Assembly: GCA_035490435.1 (NCBI GenBank) | Contig: DATHEF010000027.1 | Span: forward strand, 20,193 to 84,192 | DNA: 64,000 nucleotides | DNA from: Thermoanaerobaculia bacterium | GTDB taxonomy: Bacteria > Acidobacteriota > Thermoanaerobaculia > Multivoradales > UBA5704 | Direction of reading: 5' to 3' | Part shown: in pieces, positions 4,173 through 61,400 of the stretch | How the letters are laid out: each line of letters starts with the position of its first letter | Numbering within the stretch: position 1 is the first letter of the stretch | The notes under the pieces: model-generated | Seen by the model: the letters and a program-made list of their open reading frames with translations, nothing else | What the model was told of the DNA's origin: nothing | Databases searched by the model: none | Made by a program: the position numbers and the translations under genes

Positions 4173-4220
4173 GAACGAGAGACAGCCCACGCAGGGACCG
4201 CCCTTTCCGGGAGGTCCGCC

Positions 4221-4410
4221 GGCGTTTCAGGAGCTCTCGCCAGGGTTTTTCAGACTCTCGCCAGCGCTTCCGAGACTCTCGCCGGCATTTTTCGGACTCC
4301 CGCCAACGTTTCGGAGACTTCCGCCGTCATTTCCGGGGTTATTGCCCGACTTTTCCAGAGGCTTGCCAGCGTTTGGAGAGTCTCGGAAATGTCGGCGAGA
4401 CTCTCCGAAA
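4221..4410. repeat. 8 tandem 21-bp repeats (consensus RGCGTTTYCGGAGACTCTCGCC) followed by a 32-bp palindrome GGAGAGTCTCGGAAATGTCGGCGAGACTCTCC
   Basis: Units read directly at 4221, 4242, 4263, 4284, 4305, 4326, 4347 and 4368. The palindrome spans 4375-4406. Lies in the convergent intergenic gap between the MFS gene (+) and a small membrane-protein gene (-). Confidence 0.8.
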
Positions 4411-6703: not shown

Positions 6704-8278
6704 TTGACCGACCGCGACGAAACCCAGGGGGCGGGTCCCGCCGCGCCGTTCGAGGAGAGCGTCGAGGACCTCTACGACAACGCCCCCTGCGGTTATCTCT
6801 CGGCGCTCCCCGGCGGGCTGATCGTCAAGGTCAACCAGACCTTTCTGGACTGGACGGGCTACCGGCGGGAGGAGCTCGTCGGCCGCCGGCGGTTTCAGGA
6901 CTTGCTCACCGCCGGCGGCAGGATCTTCCACGAGACGCACTACGCGCCGCTGCTGCGGATGCAAGGGGCGGTGCGCGAGATCGCCGTCGACGTAGTCTGC
7001 CCCGACGGCCGCCGGCTGCCGGCACTGATCAACTCGGTGCTCAAGAAGGATGAAGAGGGCACGCCGCTGCTCGTGCGCACCACGGTCTTCAACGCCACCG
7101 ACCGCAAGGAGTACGAGCGCGAGCTGCTGCGCGAGCGGCAGCGGGCCGAGCAGGAGGCGAAGGCCAAGTCGGACCTGATCTCGATGATCAGCCACGAGAT
7201 CCGCACCCCGCTCAACGCCATCATGGGGGTCGGGCACCTCCTCGGGGCTACCGAGCTCACCGCGCAGCAGCAGAAGTTCGTCCGCATCCTCCGCTCGTCC
7301 TCGGAGAGCCTGCTGGGCCTGATCAACGACATCCTCGATTTCAGCAAGATCGAGGCCGGCAAGGTCGTCCTGGAAGAGCGGAGCGTGGACCTCCGGCAAC
7401 TGATCCACGGCATCGCCGACAACCTCCACGTCAAGGCCGAGGAAAAAGGGCTGGAGCTCGCGGTGCACGTCGACGAGCGGATGCCGGTCTCCGTCCTCGG
7501 CGACCCGATCAAGATCGGGCAGGTGCTCACCAACCTGCTCAGCAACGCCATCAAGTTCACGTCCACGGGGTCGGTGACGGCGACGCTGCAGGTCCGCGAG
7601 CAGATCGCGGACGCGGTGTCGATCGACTTTCAGGTCGCCGACACCGGGATCGGGATCGCCCCGGACCGATTGCCGCACATCTTCGACGAATTCACCCAGG
7701 CCAACTACGACATCGGCCTGAAGTATGGTGGCACCGGCCTCGGGCTATCGATCAGCAAGAAACTGGTGGAGCTGTACGGCAGCCACATCGCCGTCGAGAG
7801 CGAGCTCGGGCGGGGAACGACGTTCTCCTTCGTCCTGCGCCTGCGGACGCCGGAGGCTGGCGAGGCGGCCGGCGAGACCGCCGGTCAGCAGGCTCTACGG
7901 GGGTTGACAGTCCTGGTGGCGGACGACAACGAGGTCAACGTGCTCGTCCTCACCGGGTTCCTGCGGGGGTGGGGCGCCGAGATCGACGTCGTATCCAACG
8001 GCCGGCACGCCGTCGAGCGGATCCAGGAGCGGGATTACGATCTCGTGTTGATGGATCTGCGCATGCCGGAGCTGGACGGCTACGCCGCCACACGCCAGAT
8101 CCGCTCCCTGGCGGACCCGCGATACGCGCGGCTGCCGATCTTCGCGGTCTCGGCCTCCACCCGGATGGGCCATCAGCACGAGCTCGACAACGCCGGTTTC
8201 ACCGAGTTCGTCGGCAAGCCGGTTAGTCCCGAGATCCTGCTCGCGAAGATCGCCCGGCACGCGCGCCGCGATTCCTAG
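6704..8278 (+). CDS. PAS-domain hybrid sensor histidine kinase / response regulator
   Basis: N-terminal PAS, HisKA H-box ISHEIRTPLNAI, HATPase G-boxes (DTGIGI, GGTGLGLSI), and a C-terminal REC domain (LVADDNEVN...DLVLMDLRMPELDG...KP). Confidence 0.9.
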   Translation: MTDRDETQGAGPAAPFEESVEDLYDNAPCGYLSALPGGLIVKVNQTFLDWTGYRREELVGRRRFQDLLTAGGRIFHETHYAPLLRMQGAVREIAVDVVCPDGRRLPALINSVLKKDEEGTPLLVRTTVFNATDRKEYERELLRERQRAEQEAKAKSDLISMISHEIRTPLNAIMGVGHLLGATELTAQQQKFVRILRSSSESLLGLINDILDFSKIEAGKVVLEERSVDLRQLIHGIADNLHVKAEEKGLELAVHVDERMPVSVLGDPIKIGQVLTNLLSNAIKFTSTGSVTATLQVREQIADAVSIDFQVADTGIGIAPDRLPHIFDEFTQANYDIGLKYGGTGLGLSISKKLVELYGSHIAVESELGRGTTFSFVLRLRTPEAGEAAGETAGQQALRGLTVLVADDNEVNVLVLTGFLRGWGAEIDVVSNGRHAVERIQERDYDLVLMDLRMPELDGYAATRQIRSLADPRYARLPIFAVSASTRMGHQHELDNAGFTEFVGKPVSPEILLAKIARHARRDS

Positions 8279-8406
8279 CCCCCACCTGGAACAGCCTCCA
8301 CCGGCGGAATTTTTCGCATGGAGGCACGACAGTTGCTTCCAAACGAGATTCTCGCCCATCCTCATCTGGGGATGACGTGGACCACTCGCTCAGGGAAGGA
8401 GCCTCA

Positions 8407-9483
8407 ATGTTCTACCACGTCAAGGAATTGCAGTTCAACGCGCGGGTTTCGAAGCCGGATCCTCGTTTCGCGACCCTCCTGCTCGAGCAGTTTGGAGGTG
8501 GAAATGGCGAGCTCAAGGCCGCCATGCAGTATTTCGTACAAGCGTTCGGTTGCCGCCAGGCCTATCCCGACAAGTACGACCTGCTGATGGACATCGCCAC
8601 CGAGGAGTTCAGCCATCTCGAGATCGTCGGCGCCACGATCACCATGCTCCTCAACGGCATCAATGGCGAGCTCAAGAACACCGCCGAGCAGAGCGACCTC
8701 ATGCGCCTGCTCAAGGGGAAGGCGGCGAAGGAGGAGTACATCCACGACGCGATCATGAACCCGCACTTCCTCGTCCTTTCCGGCGGCGGACCGACGGTGA
8801 CCGACAGCCAGGGGGTGCCCTGGTCGGGCGCCTACGTCAACGCCAATGGCGACCTCACCGTGGACCTGCGCTCGAACATCGCGGCCGAGTCGCGGGCGAA
8901 GATCGTCTACGAGTACCTCCTCCACTTCACCGACGACCCCCACGTCCATGAGACGCTCCGCTTCCTGATGACCCGCGAAATCGCCCATTTCCAGATGTTC
9001 ACGGCGGCGCTGGAGACCATCCAGCCGAACTTCCCGCCGGGCGTACTGCAGGGGGATCCGCGCTACACCCACACCTACTTCAACATGTCGAACGGCGCCA
9101 GCGCGCGCGGGCCGTGGAACGAGGGCTCGGGCCCGTGGGGGCCGGGCGAGAGCTGGGAGTACATCGACGATCCGCTCCGCCACGTCGTCGAGACGCAGGG
9201 GCTGGTCGACGAGGAGATTCGCGGCACCGACGAGACGCCGGCGGACGCGACGAAGCTCGAGACCGAGCTCGGCGTCCTGCGGAGCGGAGAGGTCAAGTCC
9301 GCCCTTCCCAAGGGCGCCAACCAGTGGTCCAGCTACCCCCAGGATCAGCTCGCCAGCCCGGGGAGCACCCCGGTCGATCCCAACGCCAGCAAGAAGGCGG
9401 GCAAGAAGACCGCCGCCAAGGCCGCCGCGAAGACCGGCGGAAAGGCCAGCTCGAAGCCGGCATCGAGGCCCAGCCCAGCCTAA
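8407..9483 (+). CDS. Manganese catalase (Mn-containing, YdbD/KatN-like) with Lys/Ala-rich C-terminal tail
   Basis: MFYHVKELQF N-terminus and di-Mn ligand context (EEFSHLE, REIAHFQMF). AGGAG RBS 7 nt upstream of the ATG at 8407. The six-frame ORF start at 8377 is probably upstream of the true start. Confidence 0.85.
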   Translation: MFYHVKELQFNARVSKPDPRFATLLLEQFGGGNGELKAAMQYFVQAFGCRQAYPDKYDLLMDIATEEFSHLEIVGATITMLLNGINGELKNTAEQSDLMRLLKGKAAKEEYIHDAIMNPHFLVLSGGGPTVTDSQGVPWSGAYVNANGDLTVDLRSNIAAESRAKIVYEYLLHFTDDPHVHETLRFLMTREIAHFQMFTAALETIQPNFPPGVLQGDPRYTHTYFNMSNGASARGPWNEGSGPWGPGESWEYIDDPLRHVVETQGLVDEEIRGTDETPADATKLETELGVLRSGEVKSALPKGANQWSSYPQDQLASPGSTPVDPNASKKAGKKTAAKAAAKTGGKASSKPASRPSPA

Positions 9484-32535: not shown

Positions 32536-32644
32536 GCTCTCTCCAGGGTTGGGTACGGCAAGGGCACGGCCCCCGCCCAGCCCTATGAGTGCCGGGAGGG
32601 ACCGCGAGCGAGACTATCATGGTCGAGGCAGGAGAGTGGGCGGG

Positions 32645-32673
32645 TTGACGGGAGGCGTGCGGAGACGTAAAAT
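32645..32673 (+). promoter_or_regulatory. Near-consensus sigma70-type promoter TTGACG-17-TAAAAT driving a leaderless ATG at 32680
   Basis: Hexamers and 17-nt spacer read directly. The ATG lies 6 nt after the -10. Confidence 0.6.
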
Positions 32674-32679
32674 CGCGTC

Positions 32680-32865
32680 ATGACGAAACGCGTTATCCTG
32701 CCTCCACTCAAGAAGGGCTCACGGACCCCCGAGGAGATCCGCGAGGCGGTGAGGGTCGTGATGACAACCCGGGATGCAGCGACCTGGCAGAAGGTACAGC
32801 GGTTCGATCCGGACCCCATCGTGATCGTCGCGGACCCGCCTTCAGGCACGCGTGAAGACCGTTAA
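32680..32865 (+). CDS. Small hypothetical protein (61 aa) at the head of the low-GC islet
   Basis: Positioned exactly at the leaderless promoter, with no recognisable domain. Same frame as the downstream TIR-like ORF, separated from it by a TAA and 8 codons. Confidence 0.4.
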   Translation: MTKRVILPPLKKGSRTPEEIREAVRVVMTTRDAATWQKVQRFDPDPIVIVADPPSGTREDR

Positions 32866-32889
32866 CCAATCCCTCTATCCCCTTTTCCC

Positions 32890-33528
32890 TTGTCCGAACC
32901 AGGTTCGCGTCCCACTGGGACTGCCTATCGTCAGAGCGTTTTCATCAACTGCCCTTTCGACCTTCAGTACCAGCCCCTCTTCGAAGCCATCGTCTTCGCG
33001 GTTTCCGACTGCGGATTTCAACCTCGTAGCGCATTGGAAATTGATGACGGAAGCCAGATCAGGATTCAGAACATCTTCAGCATCATCTCCGGCTGCAAGT
33101 TCGGTATCCACGATATCTCGAAGACGGAACTAGACGCGGTCAACCAGCTTCCGCGGTTCAACATGCCCCTGGAACTGGGCGTTTTTCTCGGCGCCAAGAG
33201 ATACGGACAGGGCGGACAGAAAGAAAAGATCTGCCTGATCCTGGACCGAGCCAGCTACCGGTACCAGAAGTTCCTCTCGGATATCGCTGGACAGGACATC
33301 CGTGCTCACGGAGATGACCCTAGAATGGCGATTTCCCTTGTAAGGAACTGGCTTCGCAATGCCTCGCCGCTGATCACCATGCCGGGGGGTGAAGCGATCG
33401 GTGACCGTTACCATGAGTTTCGTAACGCGCTCCCCTCCCTCTGCCGTACCCTGAAACTCTCGACGCTCGAGCTGACCTTTACCGACTACAGGTGGCTCAT
33501 CGCTGCATGGCTCGATCAGAATCCTTAA
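32890..33528 (+). CDS. TIR-like / SLOG-fold nucleotide-binding domain protein (COG4271-like) with unknown C-terminal domain
   Basis: ~50% GC against a ~70% background. Has VFINCPF beta-strand 1, helices, and an NMPLELGVFLG motif like the conserved NVLFELGYALG of TIR-like/deoxyribosyltransferase-fold proteins. Only a TTG start is available. Confidence 0.45.
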   Translation: MSEPGSRPTGTAYRQSVFINCPFDLQYQPLFEAIVFAVSDCGFQPRSALEIDDGSQIRIQNIFSIISGCKFGIHDISKTELDAVNQLPRFNMPLELGVFLGAKRYGQGGQKEKICLILDRASYRYQKFLSDIAGQDIRAHGDDPRMAISLVRNWLRNASPLITMPGGEAIGDRYHEFRNALPSLCRTLKLSTLELTFTDYRWLIAAWLDQNP

Positions 33529-33539
33529 TTCTCTAGAAG

Positions 33540-33568
33540 TTGGGCCAAACCCCCGGCCGGGCTACAAT
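33540..33568 (+). promoter_or_regulatory. Sigma70-type promoter TTGGGC-17-TACAAT with leaderless ATG at 33578
   Basis: Read directly. The ATG lies 9 nt downstream of the -10. Confidence 0.5.
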
Positions 33569-33577
33569 CCCCCGGCC

Positions 33578-34393
33578 ATGCCGTCCCGCCGCATCTTCCC
33601 GCCCGAGCCCGCCGTCACCGGGGAGACCCGCATACAGCGCTGGCGGCGCAAGCGGCGCACCTACGTCCTGCGCTGGTTCGACCGCGCGATCCTCTCCCTC
33701 TACCGGATGATCCACTGGCTCGACCGCAAGGCTCCCGTCGAGAGGCGCTACTTCCGGGTGGCGATCTTCGGCTCCAGCCGCATCCAGCCGGAGGACGAGA
33801 CCTATGCCCAGGTGCGCGAGCTCGCCCGCCAGCTCTCCTACATGGGGTGCGACATCGTCACCGGCGGCGGCCCCGGCCTGATGCGGGCGGCCAACGAGGG
33901 GGCCCGGGCCGGCGCCTACCACTACAAGACCCGCTCCTTCGGGCTCACCATCCTCCTGCCCATGGAGGAGCAGCCCAATCCCTTCATCGACGAGGTGGCC
34001 CAGCACTCGATGTTCTTCTCCCGCCTCCACCAGTTCATCCGCCTCTCGCACGCCTACATCGTGATGGACGGCGGCATCGGCACCACCCTGGAGGCGATGA
34101 TGGTCTGGCAGCTCCTGCAGGTGCGGCTGATGAGCGGCCGGACGCTCATCTTCGTGGGGCCGATGTGGCGGGGCTTGCGGAGCTGGATCGAGCGCGAGAT
34201 CATCGGACGCGGACTCGCCTCGCCGCCGGATCTCGACCTCGCCGTCTGGGTGGATACCGTCGACGAAGCCCTGGAGGTGGTGACGCGCGCGCTCGCGGAT
34301 TTCCTCCGCCAGCACAAGGTGATCCTCCCGCCGGCGCTGGAAGAGCCGCCCGGAGGGGCCCCCGTGATCCCGGTCGGCCCCGAGGTCGAGTGA
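33578..34393 (+). CDS. LOG-family protein (cytokinin riboside 5'-monophosphate phosphoribohydrolase-like, TIGR00730)
   Basis: Rossmann motifs VTGGGPGLMRAANEGA and IVMDGGIGTTLE. Confidence 0.8.
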   Translation: MPSRRIFPPEPAVTGETRIQRWRRKRRTYVLRWFDRAILSLYRMIHWLDRKAPVERRYFRVAIFGSSRIQPEDETYAQVRELARQLSYMGCDIVTGGGPGLMRAANEGARAGAYHYKTRSFGLTILLPMEEQPNPFIDEVAQHSMFFSRLHQFIRLSHAYIVMDGGIGTTLEAMMVWQLLQVRLMSGRTLIFVGPMWRGLRSWIEREIIGRGLASPPDLDLAVWVDTVDEALEVVTRALADFLRQHKVILPPALEEPPGGAPVIPVGPEVE

Positions 34394-34398
34394 GCTTG

Positions 34399-34671
34399 GC
34401 GACCCGCGGTTTCAACTCTCCGACCCACGGTCCGAGGACTCCGACCCGTGGGTTCAAGATCCCGACCCGCGGGTCCGACTCTCCGACCCATGGATCCAGC
34501 ACTCCGACCCACGGGTCCACTTCTCCGGACCACGGGTCCAAGACTCCGACCCCCGGGTCCGACTCTCCGGACCGCGGGTCCGCCCCTCCGACCCACGGGT
34601 CCGGCTTTCCAATTCACGGGTCCGACTCCGCGGACCACGGGTCCGGCGCTGCAAACCGCGGGTCCGGCCGC
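34399..34671. repeat. 13 tandem 21-bp repeats, consensus CGACCCRCGGGTCCGACTCTC, each containing the 12-bp palindrome GACCCNNGGGTC
   Basis: Units enumerated directly from the sequence. The array fills the gap between the LOG gene and tolQ. No start-codon-bearing ORF spans it. Confidence 0.85.
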
Positions 34672-34765
34672 GGCTCCGAATTCGCGCCCGGCACATCCTT
34701 TGCTCATGCCGAGGTGACATGGTACGTTCCGGCCGCGTAGCGCGTAGAAGGGTGAAAGGGGACGC

Positions 34766-35491
34766 ATGCTCTCAATGGCTCTGATCTTTTTCCAGGCCGG
34801 TCCCGCGGGGTCTGGCATGTTCCGCTTCTTTCTGCAGGCGGGGCCGATGGCGAAGTTCATCCTCGCCCTGCTCGTGCTGTTCTCGATCGGCTCCTGGGCG
34901 ATCATCTTCGGCAAGCTGGTGCAGTTCCGCCGCGCCGACCGCCAGAGCGAGAAGTTCCTCGAGACCTTCCACCGCAGCCAGCGGTTCAGCGAGGTCAACG
35001 CCCAGTCCAGCAAGCTCAGCGCCTCGCCGCTGGTGGGGATCTTCCAGGCCGGTTATGCCGAGATCGACGCCCAGATCAAGAACGCCCCGGACCCGGAGCG
35101 GCCCGGCGAGAAGCGGGCCTACCGCATCAGCTCGGTCCCCGCTCTGGAGCGGACGCTGACGCGGGCGGTCAACGGCGAGCTCCAGGGGGTCACTCGCTGG
35201 CTGGGTTTCCTTGCCACCACCGCCTCCGCGACGCCGTTCATCGGCCTTTTTGGCACGGTGTGGGGGATCATGCAGGCCTTCAACGACATCGGCCTCCAGG
35301 GCTCGACCTCGATCGTGGCGGTGGCGCCGGGCATTGCCGAGGCGCTGATCAACACCGCGGCCGGCCTCGCCGCGGCCATCCCGGCCCTGATCAGCTACAA
35401 CTACTTCTCCCAGTACTCCCGCCGGCTGCGGATGCGCATGGAAGACTTCTCCCTGGAGTTCCTGAACCTCGCGGAGCGGAACTTCACGTAG
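34766..35491 (+). CDS. tolQ: TolQ/ExbB proton-channel protein
   Basis: MotA/TolQ/ExbB signature TAPFIGLFGTVWGIM and 3 TM helices. Confidence 0.85.
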   Translation: MLSMALIFFQAGPAGSGMFRFFLQAGPMAKFILALLVLFSIGSWAIIFGKLVQFRRADRQSEKFLETFHRSQRFSEVNAQSSKLSASPLVGIFQAGYAEIDAQIKNAPDPERPGEKRAYRISSVPALERTLTRAVNGELQGVTRWLGFLATTASATPFIGLFGTVWGIMQAFNDIGLQGSTSIVAVAPGIAEALINTAAGLAAAIPALISYNYFSQYSRRLRMRMEDFSLEFLNLAERNFT

Positions 35492-35539
35492 GCCCGGTGT
35501 CTTTTCCCCGGGTCGCGGTGTCTAAGAGGTAGGAAGACG

Positions 35540-35980
35540 ATGGCATTCAATTTTGGCAGCGGCGGCGACGACGAACCGGTCCTCGCCGACATCAACGTCA
35601 CCCCGCTGGTGGACGTGATGCTGGTGCTTCTGATCATCTTCATGATCGCCGCCCCCATGCTGCACCAGGGGGTCGAGGTCGCCCTGCCGAAGGCGAACGC
35701 CCCCAACCTGCCTTTGCGGGTGCAGGACCCGCTGGTGGTCTCGATCGACCGCAACGGCCGCATCTACCTGCGGGAGTCGGCGGTGGAGAGCGACGAGCTG
35801 GTCGCCCGCATCAAGGCCCAGATCTCCGCGCGCGGCGACGATACGGTGTTCCTCAAGGGGGACCGCGACGTCCCCTACGGCAAGGTCATCGAGGTGCTCG
35901 ACATTCTCCACCAGGGGGGCATCGTGCACGTGGGCATGGTCACGGATCGCCGGACGGAAAGGGGACGGCGCGCGTCGTGA
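35540..35980 (+). CDS. tolR: TolR/ExbD
   Basis: INVTPLVDVMLVLLIIFM TM helix with the conserved Asp; periplasmic domain. Confidence 0.85.
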   Translation: MAFNFGSGGDDEPVLADINVTPLVDVMLVLLIIFMIAAPMLHQGVEVALPKANAPNLPLRVQDPLVVSIDRNGRIYLRESAVESDELVARIKAQISARGDDTVFLKGDRDVPYGKVIEVLDILHQGGIVHVGMVTDRRTERGRRAS

Positions 35981-36864
35981 GCCTGGCGGTCGACCGCATC
36001 CTCGAGCGGCGATCGCGGCGCGAGGGTCGCCGGCCGGAGGCGATGAGCCTCGCCGCCGCCGCGGTTCTCCACCTGGCCGTGGTGGCGCTGGTCCTGCTGC
36101 TGCCGCGCCTCAACCCTCCTCCCCCACCCCTGGCGTTCGTGCCGGTGCAGATCGTCCCCGCCCAGGCGCTGGGGGTCCGCAAGCCGGCGAGCCGGCCCAA
36201 GGCCGAGAAGCCCGCGCCGCCCAAACCGGAGCCGGCCGAAGAGGAGCCGGAGCCCCCGGCGCCCGAGCCGCCGAAGCCGAAGCCGGAACCCAAGCCGGAG
36301 CCCCCCGAGCCGAAGCCGGTCCGCGAGGACGTGCCGGTGCTCCCCGACAAGCCGGTCAAGAAGCCCGAGAAGCCGAAGCCGGCCGACACCAGCGAGCTCC
36401 CCAGACCGGCGGCGCCGGCCAGCAAGAAACCGGCCGTCCCCAAGCCGCCGGCGAGCGGCGGCACCGGCAACAACCCCGCCGGCACCACGCCCAAGGGGGA
36501 CGACAACGGCGAGGCCGGCCGGCGCGGCGCGCCCGACGCCAACCCGCTCGGCACCTCCTCGTTCGGCTCGCAGATCGCCGGGCTGGACAACCCGGACTTC
36601 AAGTTCGGCTACTACATCGACCAGCTCCTGGGGGCGATCGACTCGAAATGGGTGCGGCCGCCGCTCGGCAACGAGGTCAAGGCGACAATCTCCTTCCGCA
36701 TTCAGCGGGACGGCAGCATCACCGATCTCCAGGTAGCCCAATCCTCGGGCTACAATTCCTTCGATCTCGCGGCGTTGCGCGCGGTCCAGAACGCGTCCCC
36801 CTTCCCGCCCCTGCCGCGGGCGTATCGCAACGATTCCCTGGGAGTCAACCTGATCGTCCGCTGA
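35977..36864 (+). CDS. tolA: TonB-family energy transducer (TolA position in operon)
   Basis: N-terminal TM, Pro/Lys/Glu-rich spacer, C-terminal TonB domain (VKATISFRIQRDGSITDLQVAQSSGYNSFDLAALRAV). Confidence 0.7.
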   Translation: MSLAVDRILERRSRREGRRPEAMSLAAAAVLHLAVVALVLLLPRLNPPPPPLAFVPVQIVPAQALGVRKPASRPKAEKPAPPKPEPAEEEPEPPAPEPPKPKPEPKPEPPEPKPVREDVPVLPDKPVKKPEKPKPADTSELPRPAAPASKKPAVPKPPASGGTGNNPAGTTPKGDDNGEAGRRGAPDANPLGTSSFGSQIAGLDNPDFKFGYYIDQLLGAIDSKWVRPPLGNEVKATISFRIQRDGSITDLQVAQSSGYNSFDLAALRAVQNASPFPPLPRAYRNDSLGVNLIVR

Positions 36865-36870
36865 GGTGAC

Positions 36871-38232
36871 ATGAAACCGAGATTCGCTATCCTGACCGTT
36901 CTTCTTTCCTGCCTGCTCCTCGCCGGGCTGGTGCTCTCCGCCCAACAGACGCCACCGCCGCAGGAGCTGCAGCCCGGGCAACCGCCGGGGCAGGTCACGA
37001 TCACGCTCGACCGCGGCGGCGCGCAGCCACGCAAGATCAAGCTCGCCTTCCCCGCCTTCCGCAGCCTGGGACAGCTCACCGGCGCCGGCGGCGCGGTCCG
37101 CGAGCTCGAAGAGACGGTGCGGCGCGACCTCGACGTCTCGGGCTACTTCGAGATTCAGGGGCCGGACGCGCTCTCCGGGCTCTCGCTCACCGGCGACGTG
37201 CAGAAGGACCTCGTGGCCTACCGCTCGACCGGCAACGAGGTGCTGCTGCTCGGCGACCTGCGGGTGGAAGGGGAAAAGCTGGTCTTCGAGGGGCGGGTGC
37301 TCGACCTCGGCAGCGGCCAGGCGGTGCTCGCCAAGCGCTACAGCGGCCCCTTCTCGGTCAGCCGGCGGATGGCCCATACCTTCGCCGACGAGGTGATCCG
37401 CTTCCTGGTCGGCAAGAAGGGGATCGCCCTCTCCGAGATCGCCTATACCTCGGACCGCGGCGGCAGCAAAGAGATCTACGTCATGGACTACGATGGGGAG
37501 AACCCGCGCAAGATCACCGGCCACCGCTCGACCTCGATGTCCCCGGCGTGGAGCCCGAACGGCGGGTCGATCGCCTACACCTCCTTCTTCAACGGCGGGC
37601 CGGGCCTTTATCTCGCCGACCTCGGGAGCGGCCGCAAGCGCCCGATCATCACCTCCGGCTCGCTCAACACCAGCCCAAGCTTCGCGCCCGACGGCGGCCG
37701 CGTCGCGTTCGCGCGCTCCTTCGACGGCAACGTCGAGATCGTCGTCACCGATCTCAGCGGCGGCAACCTGCGCCGGCTGACCAACTCGAACGCCATCGAG
37801 ACCAATCCGGCCTGGAGCCCCAAGGGAGGGGAGATCGCCTTCACCTCCAGCCGGGCCGGCAATCCGCACATCTACCTGATGGACTCCGAGGGGGCCAACC
37901 AGCGGCGCATCACCTACGACGGCACCTACAACGACGGCGCGTCCTGGAACCCGGAAGGGGACCTGATCGCCTACACCAGCCGGCGCGACGGGCAGTTCCA
38001 GATCGCGGTGACCAACGTGGTGACCCTGGAGAGCCGGGTGCTCACCTCCGGCCCCGGCGAGAACCAGTCGCCGACCTTTTCGCCGGACGGCCGCAAGATC
38101 GCCTTCACCTCCAGCCGCGGCGGCGGCAAGCAGATCTACGTCATGGACCTCGACGGCGGCAACGTCCGCCAGCTCACGACCGAGGGGAGCAACGATCTCG
38201 CCGATTGGTCGCGGAGCGTGCCAGAGAGGTAA
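36871..38232 (+). CDS. tolB: TolB periplasmic beta-propeller protein
   Basis: Signal peptide, TolB N-terminal domain, repeated PD40 units (SPxWSPDG...IAF/YTS). Confidence 0.9.
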   Translation: MKPRFAILTVLLSCLLLAGLVLSAQQTPPPQELQPGQPPGQVTITLDRGGAQPRKIKLAFPAFRSLGQLTGAGGAVRELEETVRRDLDVSGYFEIQGPDALSGLSLTGDVQKDLVAYRSTGNEVLLLGDLRVEGEKLVFEGRVLDLGSGQAVLAKRYSGPFSVSRRMAHTFADEVIRFLVGKKGIALSEIAYTSDRGGSKEIYVMDYDGENPRKITGHRSTSMSPAWSPNGGSIAYTSFFNGGPGLYLADLGSGRKRPIITSGSLNTSPSFAPDGGRVAFARSFDGNVEIVVTDLSGGNLRRLTNSNAIETNPAWSPKGGEIAFTSSRAGNPHIYLMDSEGANQRRITYDGTYNDGASWNPEGDLIAYTSRRDGQFQIAVTNVVTLESRVLTSGPGENQSPTFSPDGRKIAFTSSRGGGKQIYVMDLDGGNVRQLTTEGSNDLADWSRSVPER

Positions 38233-58479: not shown

Positions 58480-61400
58480 TCAGATCGCCGTCTTGCGGCG
58501 GCGGAGCGTGCTCCAGGCGGCGAGCAGCAGGAAGAACCCGAGCGCCATCAGGCCCATCTCGGACAGCGTCGGAATCGGCGGGATGACCCCGCCGGCCACG
58601 ACGACGAACGTGGTCGGGTCGGCGGCGCCGGCGGCTGCCGGGCTGTCGGTCTGGACCGTCGTCTCGTTGCTGCCGTCGAGGTCGGCGTCATAAGAGACGC
58701 TCCCCTGGTTGCTGATCGTGGTGCCGGCGGCGGTGCCGGCGTTGATGGTGGCGGTGATGGTGATCGTCACGCTGCCGGCCGCCGGGATGCTGCCGTTCCA
58801 GTTGACGGTGCTGGCCACGGTCGTCGCCGTGCCGCTGGTGGCGTTGGCGCTGACCAGGGTCAGGCCGGCGGGCAGGGTGTCGGTGAACTCGTTGCCGGCG
58901 TTGTCGGGCGATGCCGAGCTACCGGTGTTCGAGATCACGATCGTATAGGTCACCGTGCTGCCGGCCACGAAGGTGCCGCTCACGGTCTTGGTCGCCGAGA
59001 GGGTCGCGCCGCCGACCGTGAACGTGGTCGGATCATTGGCCCCACCCACCGACGGATCGTCGCTGGTTCCCGACGACTCGTTGGTGCCGTTGAGATCGGC
59101 GTCGAAGGCGATCGACGCCTGGTTGGAGACCGTGGTGCCGGGGGCGGTGCCGGCATTGACCGTGGCGGTGATGGTGATCGTCACGCTGCCGGCCGCCGGG
59201 ATGCTGCCGTTCCAGTTGACGGTGCTGGCCACGGTCGTCGCCGTGCCGCTGGTGGCGTTGGCGCTGACCAGGGTCAGGCCGGCGGGCAGGGTGTCGGTGA
59301 GCTCGTTGCCGGCGTTGTCGGGCGAGGCCGAGCTGCCGGTGTTCGAGATCACGATCGTGTAGGTCACCGTGCTGCCGGCCACGAAGGTGCCGCTCACCGT
59401 CTTGGTCGCCGAGATCGCCGCGCTGCCGACCACGAAGATGGTCGGATCGCTCGCGCCGCCGGCGCTGGGGTCGTCGGTGGAGTTGCTGGCCTCGTTCGTG
59501 CCGTCGTTGTTGGCGTCGTACGAAACGGTGCCCTGGTTGCTGATCGTCGTGCCTTGAGCGCCGGCGTTGACCGTCGCGGTGATGGTGATGGTGACGCTGC
59601 CGCCGAGAGGCGCCAGCGAGCCGTTCCAGGTGGCCGTGTTGGCCGCGGTCGCCGCCGTGCCGCTGGTGGCGGTGGCACTGACCAGGGTCAGGCCGGCGGG
59701 CAGGACGTCGGTGAACTCGTTGCCGGCGTTGTCCGCCTGGGCGGCCGTGCCGCTGTTGGTGAGCGTCACGGTGTAGGTCACCGTGCCGCCGACCTGGAAG
59801 GTGCCGGTCACCGTCTTGGTCGCCGTCACGTTGACCGTGCCGGTAAAGCCCGCGCAGACGAAGTGGACGGGGGTGACGAACATCGACCAGGCGTTGAAGC
59901 TGCCGTTGCCGGCCGGACAGCCGCCGGCCGCCGCCGAGAACATGTCCGCGGCCAGCGCCGACCAAGTCCCCTTCGAGCTGGTGCCGTCGTAACGCGACAG
60001 GCTGCCGATGGGATCCGCCGGGCGAGTCGGATCGACGAGGACTGTCCAGGGAGAGTTGTAAACCGGCAGCCAGGACTTGGAGTACGGTGCGATGGCGGCC
60101 GTCGCCTGCACCATGTCGTTGGTCGCGATCGCCGCGACGTCGTCGTCGATCACCATGTTGGTGATGGCCGGGCCGCCGCAGTCGAAGAGACCGTCCAGCA
60201 GCGCGACGAGGTCGGTGCCGACGCCGCCGGGCGAGCGCAGCATCACCGCCATGTCGCCGGTGGCGGGGCCGGTGAGGCTGTCGACGCGGAAGTCGACGTC
60301 GGCGATCTCGAAGTCGTCGGTGACGTTGATCTGGTGGAAGACGCCGCGCGCCCGGTTGTCCGCGATGACGAGGTCGGGGTTCGGATCGCCCGTGTAGGTG
60401 ACGACCGGATCGGTGCCGCTGCGGGCGCCCATCCGCACGCGGAAGGTGGTCGAGCTGGTGCCGAGGCTCGACGTCGTGGTGAGGGTGAAGTCGATGGCGC
60501 TGCCGCAGACGACCGACGGGTCGACGGTGATGAGGAAGGTATCGCCGGTCGCCGTGCCCTGCGGCGCGATCGCGCCGTAGGTCGAGCTGTTGTCGAAGAT
60601 CGTCACGCCGGGCGTCGAGGTCGAGAGCGTCGCCGTGGCGCTGGCCACCGCCTTGCTCGCGGCGCGCCACGGGTTGGTCAGCTTGACCGTGAGCTTGACC
60701 GGCTCGCCGGGATCGATCGCGCCGTTGTTATTGGCGGCGCTGTCGTCGATGGTGACGTCGGTGAGCGGATCGACGACTTCGAGGAAGGGCACGAGGAACG
60801 ACTCGTGGACGGCCTCGTGGCTGCGCAGGTAGCGCCCCTGGACCGTGAACGGAGCCTGGGCGCCGTAGCCCAGCCCGCGGTCGGCGAAACCGGCCCAGAT
60901 CGACGCCTCGTTGGCGCAGGCGTTGGTGGCGCAGTCGGCATCGAAGACCGCGTCGCGGGCGTCGGTAAAGCTGGGGTTGACCGGCGTCATCTTCAGCGCG
61001 TCGGTCACCAGTTGCAGCATCGTCTGGTTACCGGTCGGCACGTCGCCGTTGGCGCCGGCGGGATCGGCGATCACCCGGCTGCGCACCTCCCACAGACTGA
61101 GCGCCCAGATCTCGCCCGAGTTGTGGACCTCCATCGCACCGCCCAGGTTGCTGCCGAGCGGGTCCGGGGGGGAGAAGCCGCCGCTGAGGTCGTTGGTGAC
61201 GTCGTCGACGTCGGCCCAGGTCAGCGGGTTGACGGTGTTGTCCGTCGCATAGGGGAACCGGCGGATGCCGTAGATGTAGTTGTCGAAATAGGCGAGGCCG
61301 CCGAACTTGTAGGTCGCGTAGGCGCCCGTCCCGTAGTGCCCGTTGGGATCGTCGGCGTTGGTGGCGTTGAGCAGGGACAGGGCATAGAAGTCGCTCCACC

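Follow-up and report, generated by a model that had tools for sequence, protein, structure and literature searches.

Non-coding satellites, though rare, have been documented in bacteria, with a survey of VNTR-type loci available (PMC6749651), and small intergenic variable segments make up a major class of within-species diversity (PMC2884548). REPs, which are tagged by GTAG/CGTC (PMC3733652), form evenly spaced tandem arrays in Pseudomonas fluorescens (PMC3116915). Other short repeats, the SDRs, have a unit of ~21 bp, run in tandem in intergenic DNA, possibly occur in-frame in genes, and are suspected to be mobile by a mechanism that is not known. Rickettsia palindromic elements and PARCEL repeats insert in-frame into genes, the units being ~100-150 bp long or amphipathic coding repeats.

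Here, we report a comparative analysis of a tandem palindromic array between a LOG-like gene and the tol-pal operon in a 64,000-nucleotide stretch of DNA (hereafter, the window) from a metagenomic population of Thermoanaerobaculia (Acidobacteriota). On balance, we consider it probable, if far from certain, that the array represents a non-coding, palindromic minisatellite specific to its lineage and lodged in a length-tolerant spacer, with the stop codon of LOG on one side and the conserved promoter of tolQ on the other. A genome-specific minisatellite was one of the alternatives listed in the initial annotation of this DNA, and this alternative fits the comparative data, with the array present in one strain and absent from its relatives.

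The array resembles described bacterial minisatellites (PMC6749651, PMC2884548) in being built, within an intergenic spacer, from head-to-tail units that are each tens of base pairs long, in being carried by one lineage but not by near relatives, and in showing a higher-order period, degenerate edges and no associated genes. It departs from those minisatellites in several respects: its units are not near-identical but old and diverged, with a pairwise identity of ~67%; copy number did not vary in the one strain sampled; the palindromic core is far better kept than the spacer; and a related array exists at a different locus of another genome. REP, BIME and REPIN sequences are likewise GC-rich, imperfect palindromes of ~20 bp that are extragenic, lie just past stop codons, can form hairpins in single-stranded DNA or mRNA and, in the case of REPs, can form regular arrays. 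However, the window family shows no dispersed high copy number in the 127 kb of Thermoanaerobaculia DNA covered, neither GTAG nor CGTC occurs in the unit or its complement, all units adjoin in direct orientation every 21 bp instead of forming inverted doublets, and no RAYT gene was seen nearby. From the SDRs, the array differs in both phylum and sequence, and in the window it occupies a single locus rather than several dispersed ones. The resemblance to Rickettsia palindromic elements and PARCEL repeats lies in a second array (L328, see below) that forms an in-frame N-terminal extension of an SGNH hydrolase, with a period that is a multiple of 3 and mostly stop-free frames; the unit of 21 bp and the non-coding status of the window copy set the two apart.

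Iterons and partition sites of the sopC/parC type are also direct repeats of ~20 bp in helical phase, with an inverted repeat per unit in sopC, and the strict 21-bp spacing of the array falls within the iteron range (17-22 bp direct repeats in helical phase). The window array is, however, chromosomal, located between housekeeping genes and not conserved. An iteron origin was rejected because no rep gene, AT-rich unwinding element or DnaA boxes are found nearby and there is no plasmid match, and a partition or centromere-like array because neither parA/parB nor parM/parR is present within ~3 kb on each side. A CRISPR array was rejected as well, given the period of only 21 bp with ~5 variable nucleotides per unit, compared to repeats of 23-50 bp with unique spacers.

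Structure and genomic context of the array

The existence of the tandem array, 13 head-to-tail units of 21 bp laid out from position 34400, was confirmed (Table 1), and its non-randomness is far above chance. TRF detects a 21-bp period (34400-34644, 11.7 copies, 70% matches, score 171) and a 42-bp super-period (34413-34665, 75% matches, score 201), and a repeat search finds exact 21-bp spacing across nine in-register copies. Exact GACCCNNGGGTC occurs four times within the 273 bp of the array versus once in the remaining 63.7 kb of the window.

Table 1. Coordinates of the array, its parts and the neighboring features in the window
Feature	Position	Strand	Evidence and remarks
LOG-like / SLOG cluster-4 gene, 271 aa	33578..34393	+	Pfam Lysine_decarbox 1.2e-16, LDcluster4 4.6e-9; ORF list; gene calls L001-L008
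Lineage-specific segment, 290 bp (array plus degenerate junctions)	34397..34686	.	BLASTN break points and alignments
Tandem array	34400..34672	+	13 x 21-bp units, consensus CGACCCACGGGTCCGACTCTC; 42-bp higher-order period
Left terminal 12-mer GACCCGCGGTTT	34401..34412	+	exact reverse complement of right terminal 12-mer
Right terminal 12-mer AAACCGCGGGTC	34653..34664	+	mirror of 34401-34412; RNA fold pairs both ends
Junction GCTCCGAATTCGCG (degenerate 14th unit)	34673..34686	+	
Conserved tolQ promoter block	34687..34731	+	ten-locus alignment
Predicted sigma-54-like GGCAC-N5-TTGCT	34690-34704	+	within promoter block
Predicted sigma-70-like -35 TTGCTC, 17-nt spacer, TGn + TACGTT	34700-34705 (-35), 34720-34728 (TGn + TACGTT)	+	overlaps sigma-54-like motif
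Ribosome-binding region GGGTGAAAGGGGACGC before tolQ ATG	34751..34765	+	invariant in 10/10 loci
tolQ, 241 aa	34766..35491	+	
tolR	35540-35980		downstream of tolQ
tolA-like gene	35977-36864		downstream of tolR
tolB	36871-38232		followed by pal

The units are less regular than initially described. Rather than being present in each unit, the exact palindrome GACCCNNGGGTC is confined to 4 of the 13 (units 4, 6, 8 and 10), and these central units are the closest to the consensus CGACCCACGGGTCCGACTCTC. It is retained with one mismatch in units 3 and 5 and replaced in units 7, 9 and 12 by a shifted version, CGGACCNNNGGTCCG, a six-base-arm variant (CGGACC-N3-GGTCCG) with altered half-site spacing, with units 1, 2, 11 and 13 being degenerate. 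Divergence from the consensus is greatest in units 1-3 and 11-13, units 4 and 8 have 20 of 21 bases in common, and pairwise divergence within the array is ~33% (identity ~67%). Position-wise conservation over the unit is uneven (permutation p = 0.00015), the core being kept and a contiguous block of ~5 nt being variable. Of the exact inverted matches that link different units, the longest, GACCCGCGGTTT/AAACCGCGGGTC, joins the first and the last of the 13 (1 of 78 pairs) and is a weak signal for terminal inverted repeats, every unit being palindromic itself.

The neighboring genes encode a glutaredoxin, an SDR, LOG and TolQRAB-Pal, and the GC fraction is 0.65-0.71 across the region. Between the TGA stop codon of LOG and the array lies GCT, and the array starts 6 nt past the stop. 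At the other end, the array was initially described as immediately preceding the operon, but it does not abut tolQ: its end is 94 nt away from the tolQ ATG (34766), with the promoter block and the ribosome-binding site in between. Gene calls covering ~3 kb on each side of the array include no replication, partition or lineage-specific regulator gene, and those of the retrieved loci include no transposase near the array. Within the array, the sigma-70 promoter/terminator scan detected neither a promoter nor a terminator, and no Rfam family was found. The sole Rfam match in 33000-36000 was to a miRNA, at chance level, and was discarded.

The array is non-coding. Variation among its units lacks codon periodicity (23/16/20), and no gene is called over it in any of the eight retrieved loci. 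The initial statement that no ORF with a start codon covers the array is nevertheless inaccurate, because ORFs of 88-319 aa starting with GTG, ATG or TTG cross it on both strands. Nor is the array embedded in a coding gene in orthologous loci, where it is simply absent.

Distribution among relatives

The eight retrieved loci, with 0-1 SNP over stretches of up to 6.7 kb, essentially represent a single strain, and the array is identical in all seven that span the spacer; copy number could thus be compared only among assemblies of the same strain, and no variation was seen among these. The closest relative that lacks the array, L117, has flanks that are 96.1-96.7% identical and contains 11 bp in place of the 290 bp of the window. 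In BLASTN alignments of the window with L117, homology stops at 34396 and restarts at 34687; it also resumes at 34687 in L118, L120, L325 and L327, and at 34690 in L326. The empty site in L117 already includes the GCT after the LOG stop codon. The array is absent from six more distant relatives as well (L118, L120, L121, L325, L326 and L327). The spacer of L118 holds ~70 bp of other sequence, and that of L327 has, in the same spot, an unrelated, AT-rich element of ~240 bp with 31-nt inverted repeats. Because relatives hold such unrelated sequences there, the LOG-tolQ spacer can be said to accept insertions.

A wider search included several scans. In GTDB species representatives, the two-unit pattern CGGGTCC-N6-CCGNCC-N2-GGGTCC, which would miss units of the L328 type, matched 108 loci, nearly all of them single matches in high-GC actinobacteria, and a script detected no 21-bp array in this set. 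In viral contigs, three GGGTCC motifs at 21-bp spacing matched 82 loci, mostly singly and none with an array of the window family, and a stricter two-unit pattern had no match. The metagenome scan for GGGTCC at 21-bp spacing, three times, was too permissive: the matches listed are collagen-like and other coding repeats, and the source locus is not among them. BLAST searches of plasmids and phages returned no match to the window array.

A second array in an unrelated locus

The initial annotation called for a search for the 21-mer elsewhere. In ~127 kb of Thermoanaerobaculia DNA, the motif was not found again except in a second array, on another contig of the same class and in an unrelated locus (L328, 6009-6346); outside the two arrays, there is 1 exact copy of the core GACCCNNGGGTC in the ~127 kb, which is chance level. 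The L328 array comprises 14-16 units of 21 bp with the consensus CGACCCCCGGGTCGAGGAATC and is similar to the window array in core, period and size (about 290-340 bp). Both arrays begin 0-4 nt past TGAGCT, the TGA being the stop codon of the upstream gene, and both end in a degenerate CCGAATT unit, the L328 end CCGAATTGCGC being similar to GCTCCGAATTCGCG. Like the window array, the L328 array is lineage-specific, with more than 100 homologs lacking it; L332, the carbamoyltransferase ortholog locus, is not syntenic with L328 and is unusable as an empty-site comparison.

The L328 array shares the reading frame of the SGNH hydrolase ORF that follows it and forms an N-terminal extension of this ORF, whose ancestral start codon is gone. 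The array nevertheless shows no codon bias (19/14/20), and conservation along its unit is also non-uniform (p < 5e-5). Identity is 14.1 and 15.3 of 21 within the two arrays compared to 11-12 of 21 between them, and unit-by-unit comparison gave no diagonal signal of orthology in either orientation. Higher identity within than between arrays, without unit orthology, is what concerted evolution predicts.

The two arrays point to a sparse, lineage-restricted satellite family in Thermoanaerobaculia, possibly mobile, in which the window array has at least one fellow member with 21-bp units. An exhaustive protein search yielded more short hypothetical ORFs made of xSDPRVxx heptads (e.g., P0185 and P0222), and heptad arrays of the DPRV type are also found in eukaryotes, for instance, in a Coregonus protein. 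A candidate from Pinisolibacter (P0122), with a C-terminal 21-bp repeat, was set aside, as it belongs to another phylum, its core is spaced differently, and it is clearly a coding repeat, with variants in length by 7 aa.

Origin of the array

The minisatellite interpretation draws on four properties of the array: tandem units above chance, location outside coding sequence, presence/absence polymorphism and signs of concerted evolution. Under this interpretation, a hairpin-capable 21-bp unit with a GACCC/GGGTC core would have been amplified through replication slippage and unequal recombination, with misaligned intermediates stabilized by the palindrome. The center of the array would then be homogenized by concerted evolution while edge units decay and 42-bp higher-order duplications arise. 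We infer the slippage origin and the neutrality of the array from these patterns. The array places everything upstream of the promoter ~280 bp further off and gives any transcript that reads through from LOG a GC-rich tract with strong self-pairing. Because the same promoter block serves the same operon in relatives that lack the array, the array lies outside the conserved control of tol-pal, and its function is probably nil or incidental. If this interpretation is correct, a hairpin-prone 21-mer has inflated the intergenic spacer of one strain and left an essential envelope operon undisturbed, a caution that helically phased palindromes are no proof of regulation without comparative data.

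Several observations do not fit a simple minisatellite. The array is missing at ~3.5% divergence, yet its units differ by ~33%, so that either an older array was deleted in L117 or an already diversified one was imported; birth in situ after the split from L117 is unlikely. The pattern of a kept core and a variable 5-nt block is not predicted by pure neutral decay and needs selection on the core or a hairpin-related bias of mutation or repair. The mirrored 12-nt segments of the first and last units resemble terminal inverted repeats and count against the simple reading, and the presence of another array with this core in the same class, also just past TGAGCT, hints at mobility or a sequence-specific process. 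Also counted against it is the position of the array, ~28-300 bp upstream of the -24 element, an interval in the proximal part of which enhancer-binding proteins are normally found.

Alternative explanations

A different origin, which we regard as unlikely, is that the array is a copy of a non-autonomous mobile element of the MITE, SDR or BOX-like kind, that is, a ~300-bp cassette of 21-bp palindromic units mobilized in trans, landing just 3' of stop codons and absorbable into coding sequence thanks to mostly open frames and a period of 7 codons. Two arrays with like core, period and size (~290-340 bp) occupy unrelated loci in two Thermoanaerobaculia genomes, each being absent from all homologous loci or proteins examined, and their common borders, TGAGCT within 0-4 nt on one side and degenerate CCGAATT on the other, along with the mirrored 12-nt termini of the window array, are compatible with a defined element. 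The combination of high unit divergence and absence from a 96.5%-identical relative favors import of a pre-formed array, the L328 array is in-frame with the SGNH hydrolase ORF that lost its ancestral start, and the xSDPRVxx ORFs (P0185, P0222) could be further arrays. However, there is no unit-by-unit match between the two arrays, whose relative orientation is ambiguous and whose spacers differ systematically, and no convincing target-site duplication, only a 3-nt GCT at both borders; the GCT follows the stop codon in the empty L117 site too and therefore did not come with the array. Furthermore, there are no isolated or extra copies in the ~127 kb of Thermoanaerobaculia sequence, no window-type arrays among the GTDB species representatives and no transposase nearby, and the DPRV-type heptads of Coregonus indicate that a similar unit can arise independently.

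In its broadest form, this explanation would make the window and L328 arrays members of an undescribed family of ~300-bp palindromic satellite cassettes, with 21-bp GACCC-N2-GGGTC units and mirrored ends, in Thermoanaerobaculia and possibly beyond. Such cassettes would be copied between loci or genomes, land right after stop codons and be absorbed into neighboring genes as disordered N-terminal extensions, as in L328, helped by the 7-codon period and mostly stop-free frames; the xSDPRVxx 'proteins' could be further members. We view this proposal as speculative and rather improbable.

The initial annotation emphasized instead that the array is iteron-like and that a dimeric regulator of tol-pal would bind it cooperatively. 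This claim fails, as none of the related LOG-tolQ loci recovered, not even the one at 96-97% nucleotide identity, has the array, and the promoter block is conserved in all. Conservation of the palindrome in relatives had been chosen beforehand as the test; none was found, and the regulatory reading is refuted on that test. A narrower version, namely a new multi-site platform on which a dimeric DNA-binding protein (a sigma-54 enhancer-binding activator, a repressor or a nucleoid protein) tunes tol-pal in this strain through cooperative, helically phased sites, appears quite improbable. Its appeal stems from the conserved core next to a variable spacer and from the period, which sets the cores on one helical face; that 21 bp amounts to about two helical turns is correct but not diagnostic, since the same period equals 7 codons and the L328 array is in-frame within an ORF. 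Sigma-54 enhancers usually lie in the proximal part of the ~28-300 bp upstream interval and act at variable distance, and the array is located ~28-300 bp upstream of the -24 element of the conserved GGCAC-N5-TTGCT; the window's second exact sigma-54-like match likewise has the correct placement 5' of a gene. Against such a platform, all seven related loci keep the promoter without the array, exact sites are limited to 4 of the 13 units, and three units depart by 1 bp from the regular spacing of half-sites, a change poorly tolerated by a dimeric binder, the edge units nearest to the promoter being the most degenerate. The motif was not found 5' of other genes in the window or the related loci, no regulator gene co-occurs with the array (the neighboring 61-aa and 212-aa ORFs are present in array-less relatives, too), and the sister array of L328 lies inside an ORF, not at a promoter.

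A role at the RNA level is doubtful in the extreme. The array could act as a structured LOG 3'-UTR or intercistronic element (a stabilizer, processing site or read-through barrier) or, from the minus strand, as an antisense or sponge RNA with many GGA motifs, of which there are about two per unit. Predicted folding is strong for both the plus strand (-158.6 kcal/mol, z = -5.7 versus shuffled controls) and the minus strand (-198.7 kcal/mol, z = -10.2), but this is a trivial outcome of tandem palindromes. REP-type mRNA stabilizers lie just after stop codons, and the site of the array recalls them; nevertheless, the array has no U-tract terminator, no promoter on either strand and no Rfam match, and is not conserved in relatives. 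Translation, either as a C-terminal extension of LOG by TGA read-through or as a small heptad-repeat protein, can be practically dismissed: most frames are open across the array, start-codon ORFs exist, the LOG frame stays open past the TGA to 34717 and in L328 the related array shares its frame with a real gene, but the variation among the window units shows no codon-position bias and falls in a contiguous block of 5 nt rather than at third codon positions, no gene is called over the array in 8 of 8 retrieved loci, and LOG of L117 ends in TAA with nothing equivalent 3' of it.

The promoter block upstream of tolQ

Two by-products of this analysis, the tolQ promoter block and the second array in L328, may matter more than the main interpretation. 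That an SGNH hydrolase gene has taken up the L328 array in-frame hints at a sparse family of satellites able to create new protein N-termini. In the promoter block, a ten-locus alignment shows GGCAC, CTTTGCT, CATGGTA and TT to be invariant, with 3 of 5 spacer positions variable. The block combines a sigma-54-like motif with an overlapping sigma-70-like pattern, TTGCT-17-TAnnTT, although the sigma-70 consensus scan made no call there; judging by motif and spacing, we infer that this is a sigma-54-like promoter overlapping a sigma-70-like one. If confirmed, a sigma-54 -24/-12 element overlapping a sigma-70-type promoter in this Thermoanaerobaculia clade would represent an unusual mode of tol-pal control, and sigma-54-type control of tolQ would explain why the spacer tolerates insertions that differ in length and composition. 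The motif GGCAC-N5-TTGC has just two exact matches in the window, both intergenic and located 5' of plus-strand genes.

Organization of the array

The spacer between the LOG-like gene and tolQ is largely occupied by a tandem array of 21-bp units (see the table below). TRF detected 11.7 copies at a period of 21 (70% matches) and scored a period of 42 higher (75% matches), and a repeat search identified nine in-register copies spaced by exactly 21 bp. Exact GACCCNNGGGTC occurs four times inside the array versus once in the other 63.7 kb of the window. The initial annotation assigned a palindrome to each of the 13 units, which holds in exact form for units 4, 6, 8 and 10 but not elsewhere: units 3 and 5 carry one mismatch, units 7, 9 and 12 contain a shifted CGGACC-N3-GGTCCG with six-base arms, in which the half-site spacing is altered by one base, and units 1, 2, 11 and 13 are degenerate.

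The 59 departures from the consensus are unevenly distributed across the 21 positions (permutation p = 0.00015), with positions 1, 6, 9 and 10 invariant and positions 15-18 differing in 4 to 7 of the 13 units. The central units are the closest to the consensus (units 4 and 8 agree at 20/21 bases), and the three units at either edge are the most diverged; a homogenized center with diverged edges is the classical pattern of arrays under unequal exchange. Across 12 nt, the two terminal units are exact mirrors of each other (GACCCGCGGTTT, from 34401; AAACCGCGGGTC, from 34653), the longest inverted match among pairs of different array units. Two other repeats in the window, at 4216-4332 and 58663-59825, are not related in sequence to this array.

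Features of the window and of related contigs
Feature	Sequence	Location	Description
21/42-bp repeat	window	4216-4332	consensus CCGCCAGCGTTTCGGAGACTC
PAS/HisKA/HATPase/REC hybrid histidine kinase	window	6704-8278	directly before the 8323-8336 motif
Second GGCAC-N5-TTGC match	window	8323-8336	GGCACGACAGTTGC; upstream of Mn-catalase gene, ~40-70 nt from start
Mn-catalase gene	window	8377-9483 (ORF)	likely ATG near 8407
Patchy segment beside LOG gene	window	32623-33549	927 bp; GC 0.53-0.60 vs 0.69 for the window
LOG-like / SLOG cluster-4 gene	window	33578-34393	Pfam; TGA stop, array starts 6 nt downstream
21-bp tandem array	window	34400-34672	13 contiguous units, consensus CGACCCACGGGTCCGACTCTC
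Conserved block upstream of tolQ	window	34687-34731	also in L117, L118, L119, L120, L121, L122, L325, L326, L327
tolQ	window	ATG at 34766	94 nt past array end; then tolR, tolA-like gene, tolB, pal
414-bp repeat	window	58663-59825	2.8 copies; probably coding domain repeats
AT-rich element	L327	1660-1900	~240 bp; unrelated to array, same spacer position
P0121, SGNH/GDSL hydrolase	L328	6001-8472	823 aa; first ~115 residues SDPRVEE heptads
Second 21-bp array	L328	6009-6346	14-16 units, consensus CGACCCCCGGGTCGAGGAATC
P0122, hypothetical protein	L330	5966-6669	909 aa; long C-terminal coding repeats of 21 bp (heptads HRPxGSx, STPRVQR)

Phyletic distribution of the array

TolQ homologues with source names come from Thermoanaerobaculia (Acidobacteriota) MAGs. 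The exact tolQ and/or LOG protein is present in at least eight loci from at least five samples, and the eight retrieved loci represent the same strain (0-1 SNP across up to 6.7 kb). The seven loci that span the LOG-tolQ spacer, all of this one strain, carry an identical array, which excludes an assembly artefact as the source of the structure.

In the closest distinct relative, L117 (TolQ 99% identical, flanking DNA 96.1-96.7% identical), 11 bp stand in place of 290 bp of the window (34397-34686). The array is also missing from L118, L120, L121, L325 and L326 (TolQ 86-90%), with about 70 bp of different sequence at its position in L118. The AT-rich element of L327 (TolQ 87%) contains inverted repeats of 31 nt with 84% complementarity, along with duplicated TCCTATATAAAAAATTG motifs, and looks MITE-like. 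Alignment with nearly every relative picks up at 34687 (at 34690 for L326 and only from 34750 for L121). We take the spacer to be an indel hot spot because its sequence differs among relatives, with homology resuming at about 34687. The most parsimonious history is a gain of the array on the lineage leading to the window strain, or on that leading to its common ancestor with L117, with later loss from L117. A second patchy indel adjoins the LOG gene: the segment at 32623-33549, which encompasses a 61-aa and a 212-aa ORF, both without a Pfam match, is present in the window, L120, L326 and L327, and missing from L117, L118 and L121.

A sister array and other heptad-encoding repeats

Searching the six-frame translation of the array against 5.8 billion proteins yielded two matches, P0121 and P0122. 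The contig encoding P0121, L328, is from Thermoanaerobaculia: its carbamoyltransferase clusters with a so-named protein, and the closest P0121 homologues are so named as well. The array on this contig matches that of the window in its 13-nt core and its period, and is of about the same size. It begins directly after TGAGCT, whose TGA terminates the upstream gene, as does the window array (TGAGCT-TGG-CGACCC), and both arrays finish with a degenerate CCGAATT unit. The best 119 P0121 homologues listed, of 628-714 aa, start at about P0121 residue 125 and lack the extension; the L328 array is, therefore, a lineage-specific addition, too. The N-terminal gain amounts to about 125 residues of SDPRVEE heptads derived from the 21-bp palindromic array. 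The L328 gene has lost its ancestral start codon and has no other start ahead of the catalytic GES block, so that translation probably runs through the array and extends P0121 at its N terminus; the new ATG overlaps the stop of the upstream gene (ATGA).

When the two arrays were compared, individual units did not pair as orthologues and the relative orientation was ambiguous; identity is 14.1 and 15.3 of 21 within the arrays versus 11-12 of 21 between them. Such a pattern is compatible with an ancient shared origin and subsequent concerted evolution, or with a similar seed having expanded independently in each. P0122, from Pinisolibacter (Alphaproteobacteria), has a coding, C-terminal 21-bp repeat and was judged unrelated. 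The lengths in its cluster are 875, 902 and 909 aa, and the difference of exactly one 7-residue unit between the latter two suggests a coding VNTR.

An exhaustive HMMER search with one reading frame of the window array retrieved about ten more short hypothetical ORFs of xSDPRVxx heptads, such as P0185 (LSDPRVTLSGPRVTL...), in which SDPRV and SGPRV alternate as in the window array. Matches to heptads of this type include eukaryotic examples, so that similar units can arise independently. The metagenomic P0185, P0222, P0202, P0264, P0278, P0159, P0170 and P0263 are short, consist almost wholly of such heptads, and likely reflect gene prediction across further 21-bp arrays whose core is GAC-CCN-CGN-GTN.

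Origin and possible function of the array

On balance, we lean toward the array being a lineage-specific, non-coding palindromic minisatellite without a dedicated role in tol-pal control. A genome-specific minisatellite was among the options of the initial annotation, and it is the one we prefer, given that the array is lineage-specific and absent from the LOG-tolQ spacer of relatives. Such an array, placed in a length-tolerant spacer, would owe its origin and its homogenization to slippage aided by hairpins and to unequal recombination. The minisatellite reading has weak points: the core is conserved, the units are highly divergent given the closeness of L117, the array ends are mirrored, and a sister array exists. 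These points support a small mobile cassette, a reading that we consider unlikely.

An acquired protein-binding array (operator or enhancer) appears quite improbable. Non-uniform conservation inside the units, their phasing with the DNA helix, and a position that places them some 28-300 bp ahead of the -24 element of a putative sigma-54 promoter would suit this role. Exact sites, however, are only four, the half-site spacing is shifted in three units, and the promoter-proximal units are the most degenerate. Furthermore, about 127 kb of Thermoanaerobaculia DNA contained no instance of the motif ahead of other genes, and there is no co-occurring regulator gene, the adjoining 61-aa and 212-aa ORFs being present also in array-less relatives. 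The proposal of an array for a dimeric regulator of tol-pal is contradicted by the lack of conservation of the palindrome in relatives, an outcome that the initial annotation had itself named as refuting.

An RNA-level element is very unlikely: the two strands, each taken as a single strand, form far more stable folds than shuffled sequences do (z = -5.7 and -10.2), but this is a trivial consequence of the tandem palindromes, and no Rfam match, promoter-like site or U-tract terminator was detected inside the array. Least credible of all is translation: start-codon-bearing mechanical ORFs do run through the array on either strand, contrary to the initial annotation, but no gene is called over it in any of the eight retrieved loci, and unit variation lacks three-base periodicity (23/16/20) and thus does not point to coding constraint. 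Iteron set, partition site and CRISPR readings were rejected.

Among known systems, the array resembles non-coding satellites, which are rare in prokaryotes (PMC6749651), the small intergenic variable segments by which strains differ (PMC2884548) and, in unit size and tandem habit, cyanobacterial small dispersed repeats as cited in PMC2884548. Like REP/REPIN arrays, it consists of GC-rich hairpins following a stop codon (PMC3116915, PMC3733652), but it lacks their defining features, namely dispersal, the GTAG/CGTC tag and inverted doublets. The array is real and tidy, and probably an ordinary product of genome evolution; above the array itself, the leads are a possible sparse, partly exapted satellite family and a possible sigma-54-type tolQ promoter.

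The conserved block upstream of tolQ

The array had been described as lying immediately upstream of tol-pal; in fact, a conserved promoter block intervenes before tolQ. In the ten-locus alignment, this block reads CGGCAC-ATCCT-TTGCTC, with GGCAC and CTTTGCT invariant and 3/5 of the nucleotides in between variable. The consensus of sigma-54 -24/-12 promoters is TGGCAC-N5-TTGCW, so that CGGCAC-N5-TTGCT would be a near-consensus element with the expected conservation pattern. An overlapping sigma-70 promoter may also be read, with TTGCTC, a 17-nt spacer and TGn-TACGTT, in which T, A and the final TT are invariant. Across the 64 kb, exact GGCAC-N5-TTGC is confined to two sites, both intergenic and in the correct orientation upstream of genes; the second, ahead of the Mn-catalase gene, is a candidate sigma-54 promoter. 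To our knowledge, no sigma-54-dependent tol-pal promoter has been described, and a text search for one found none. If the tolQ promoter relies on an enhancer, its activation could occur from a distance, and this would account for the tolerance of the spacer to insertions that differ greatly in length and composition.

Near the 3' end of the LOG gene, GCACAAGGTGATCCT (34312-34326) is invariant, including synonymous sites, among the aligned window, L117, L118 and L120 sequences. It holds a small CAC-AAG-GTG dyad and might have served the tolQ promoter ancestrally as an upstream site, in which case the array would shift its distance from about -100 to about -390.
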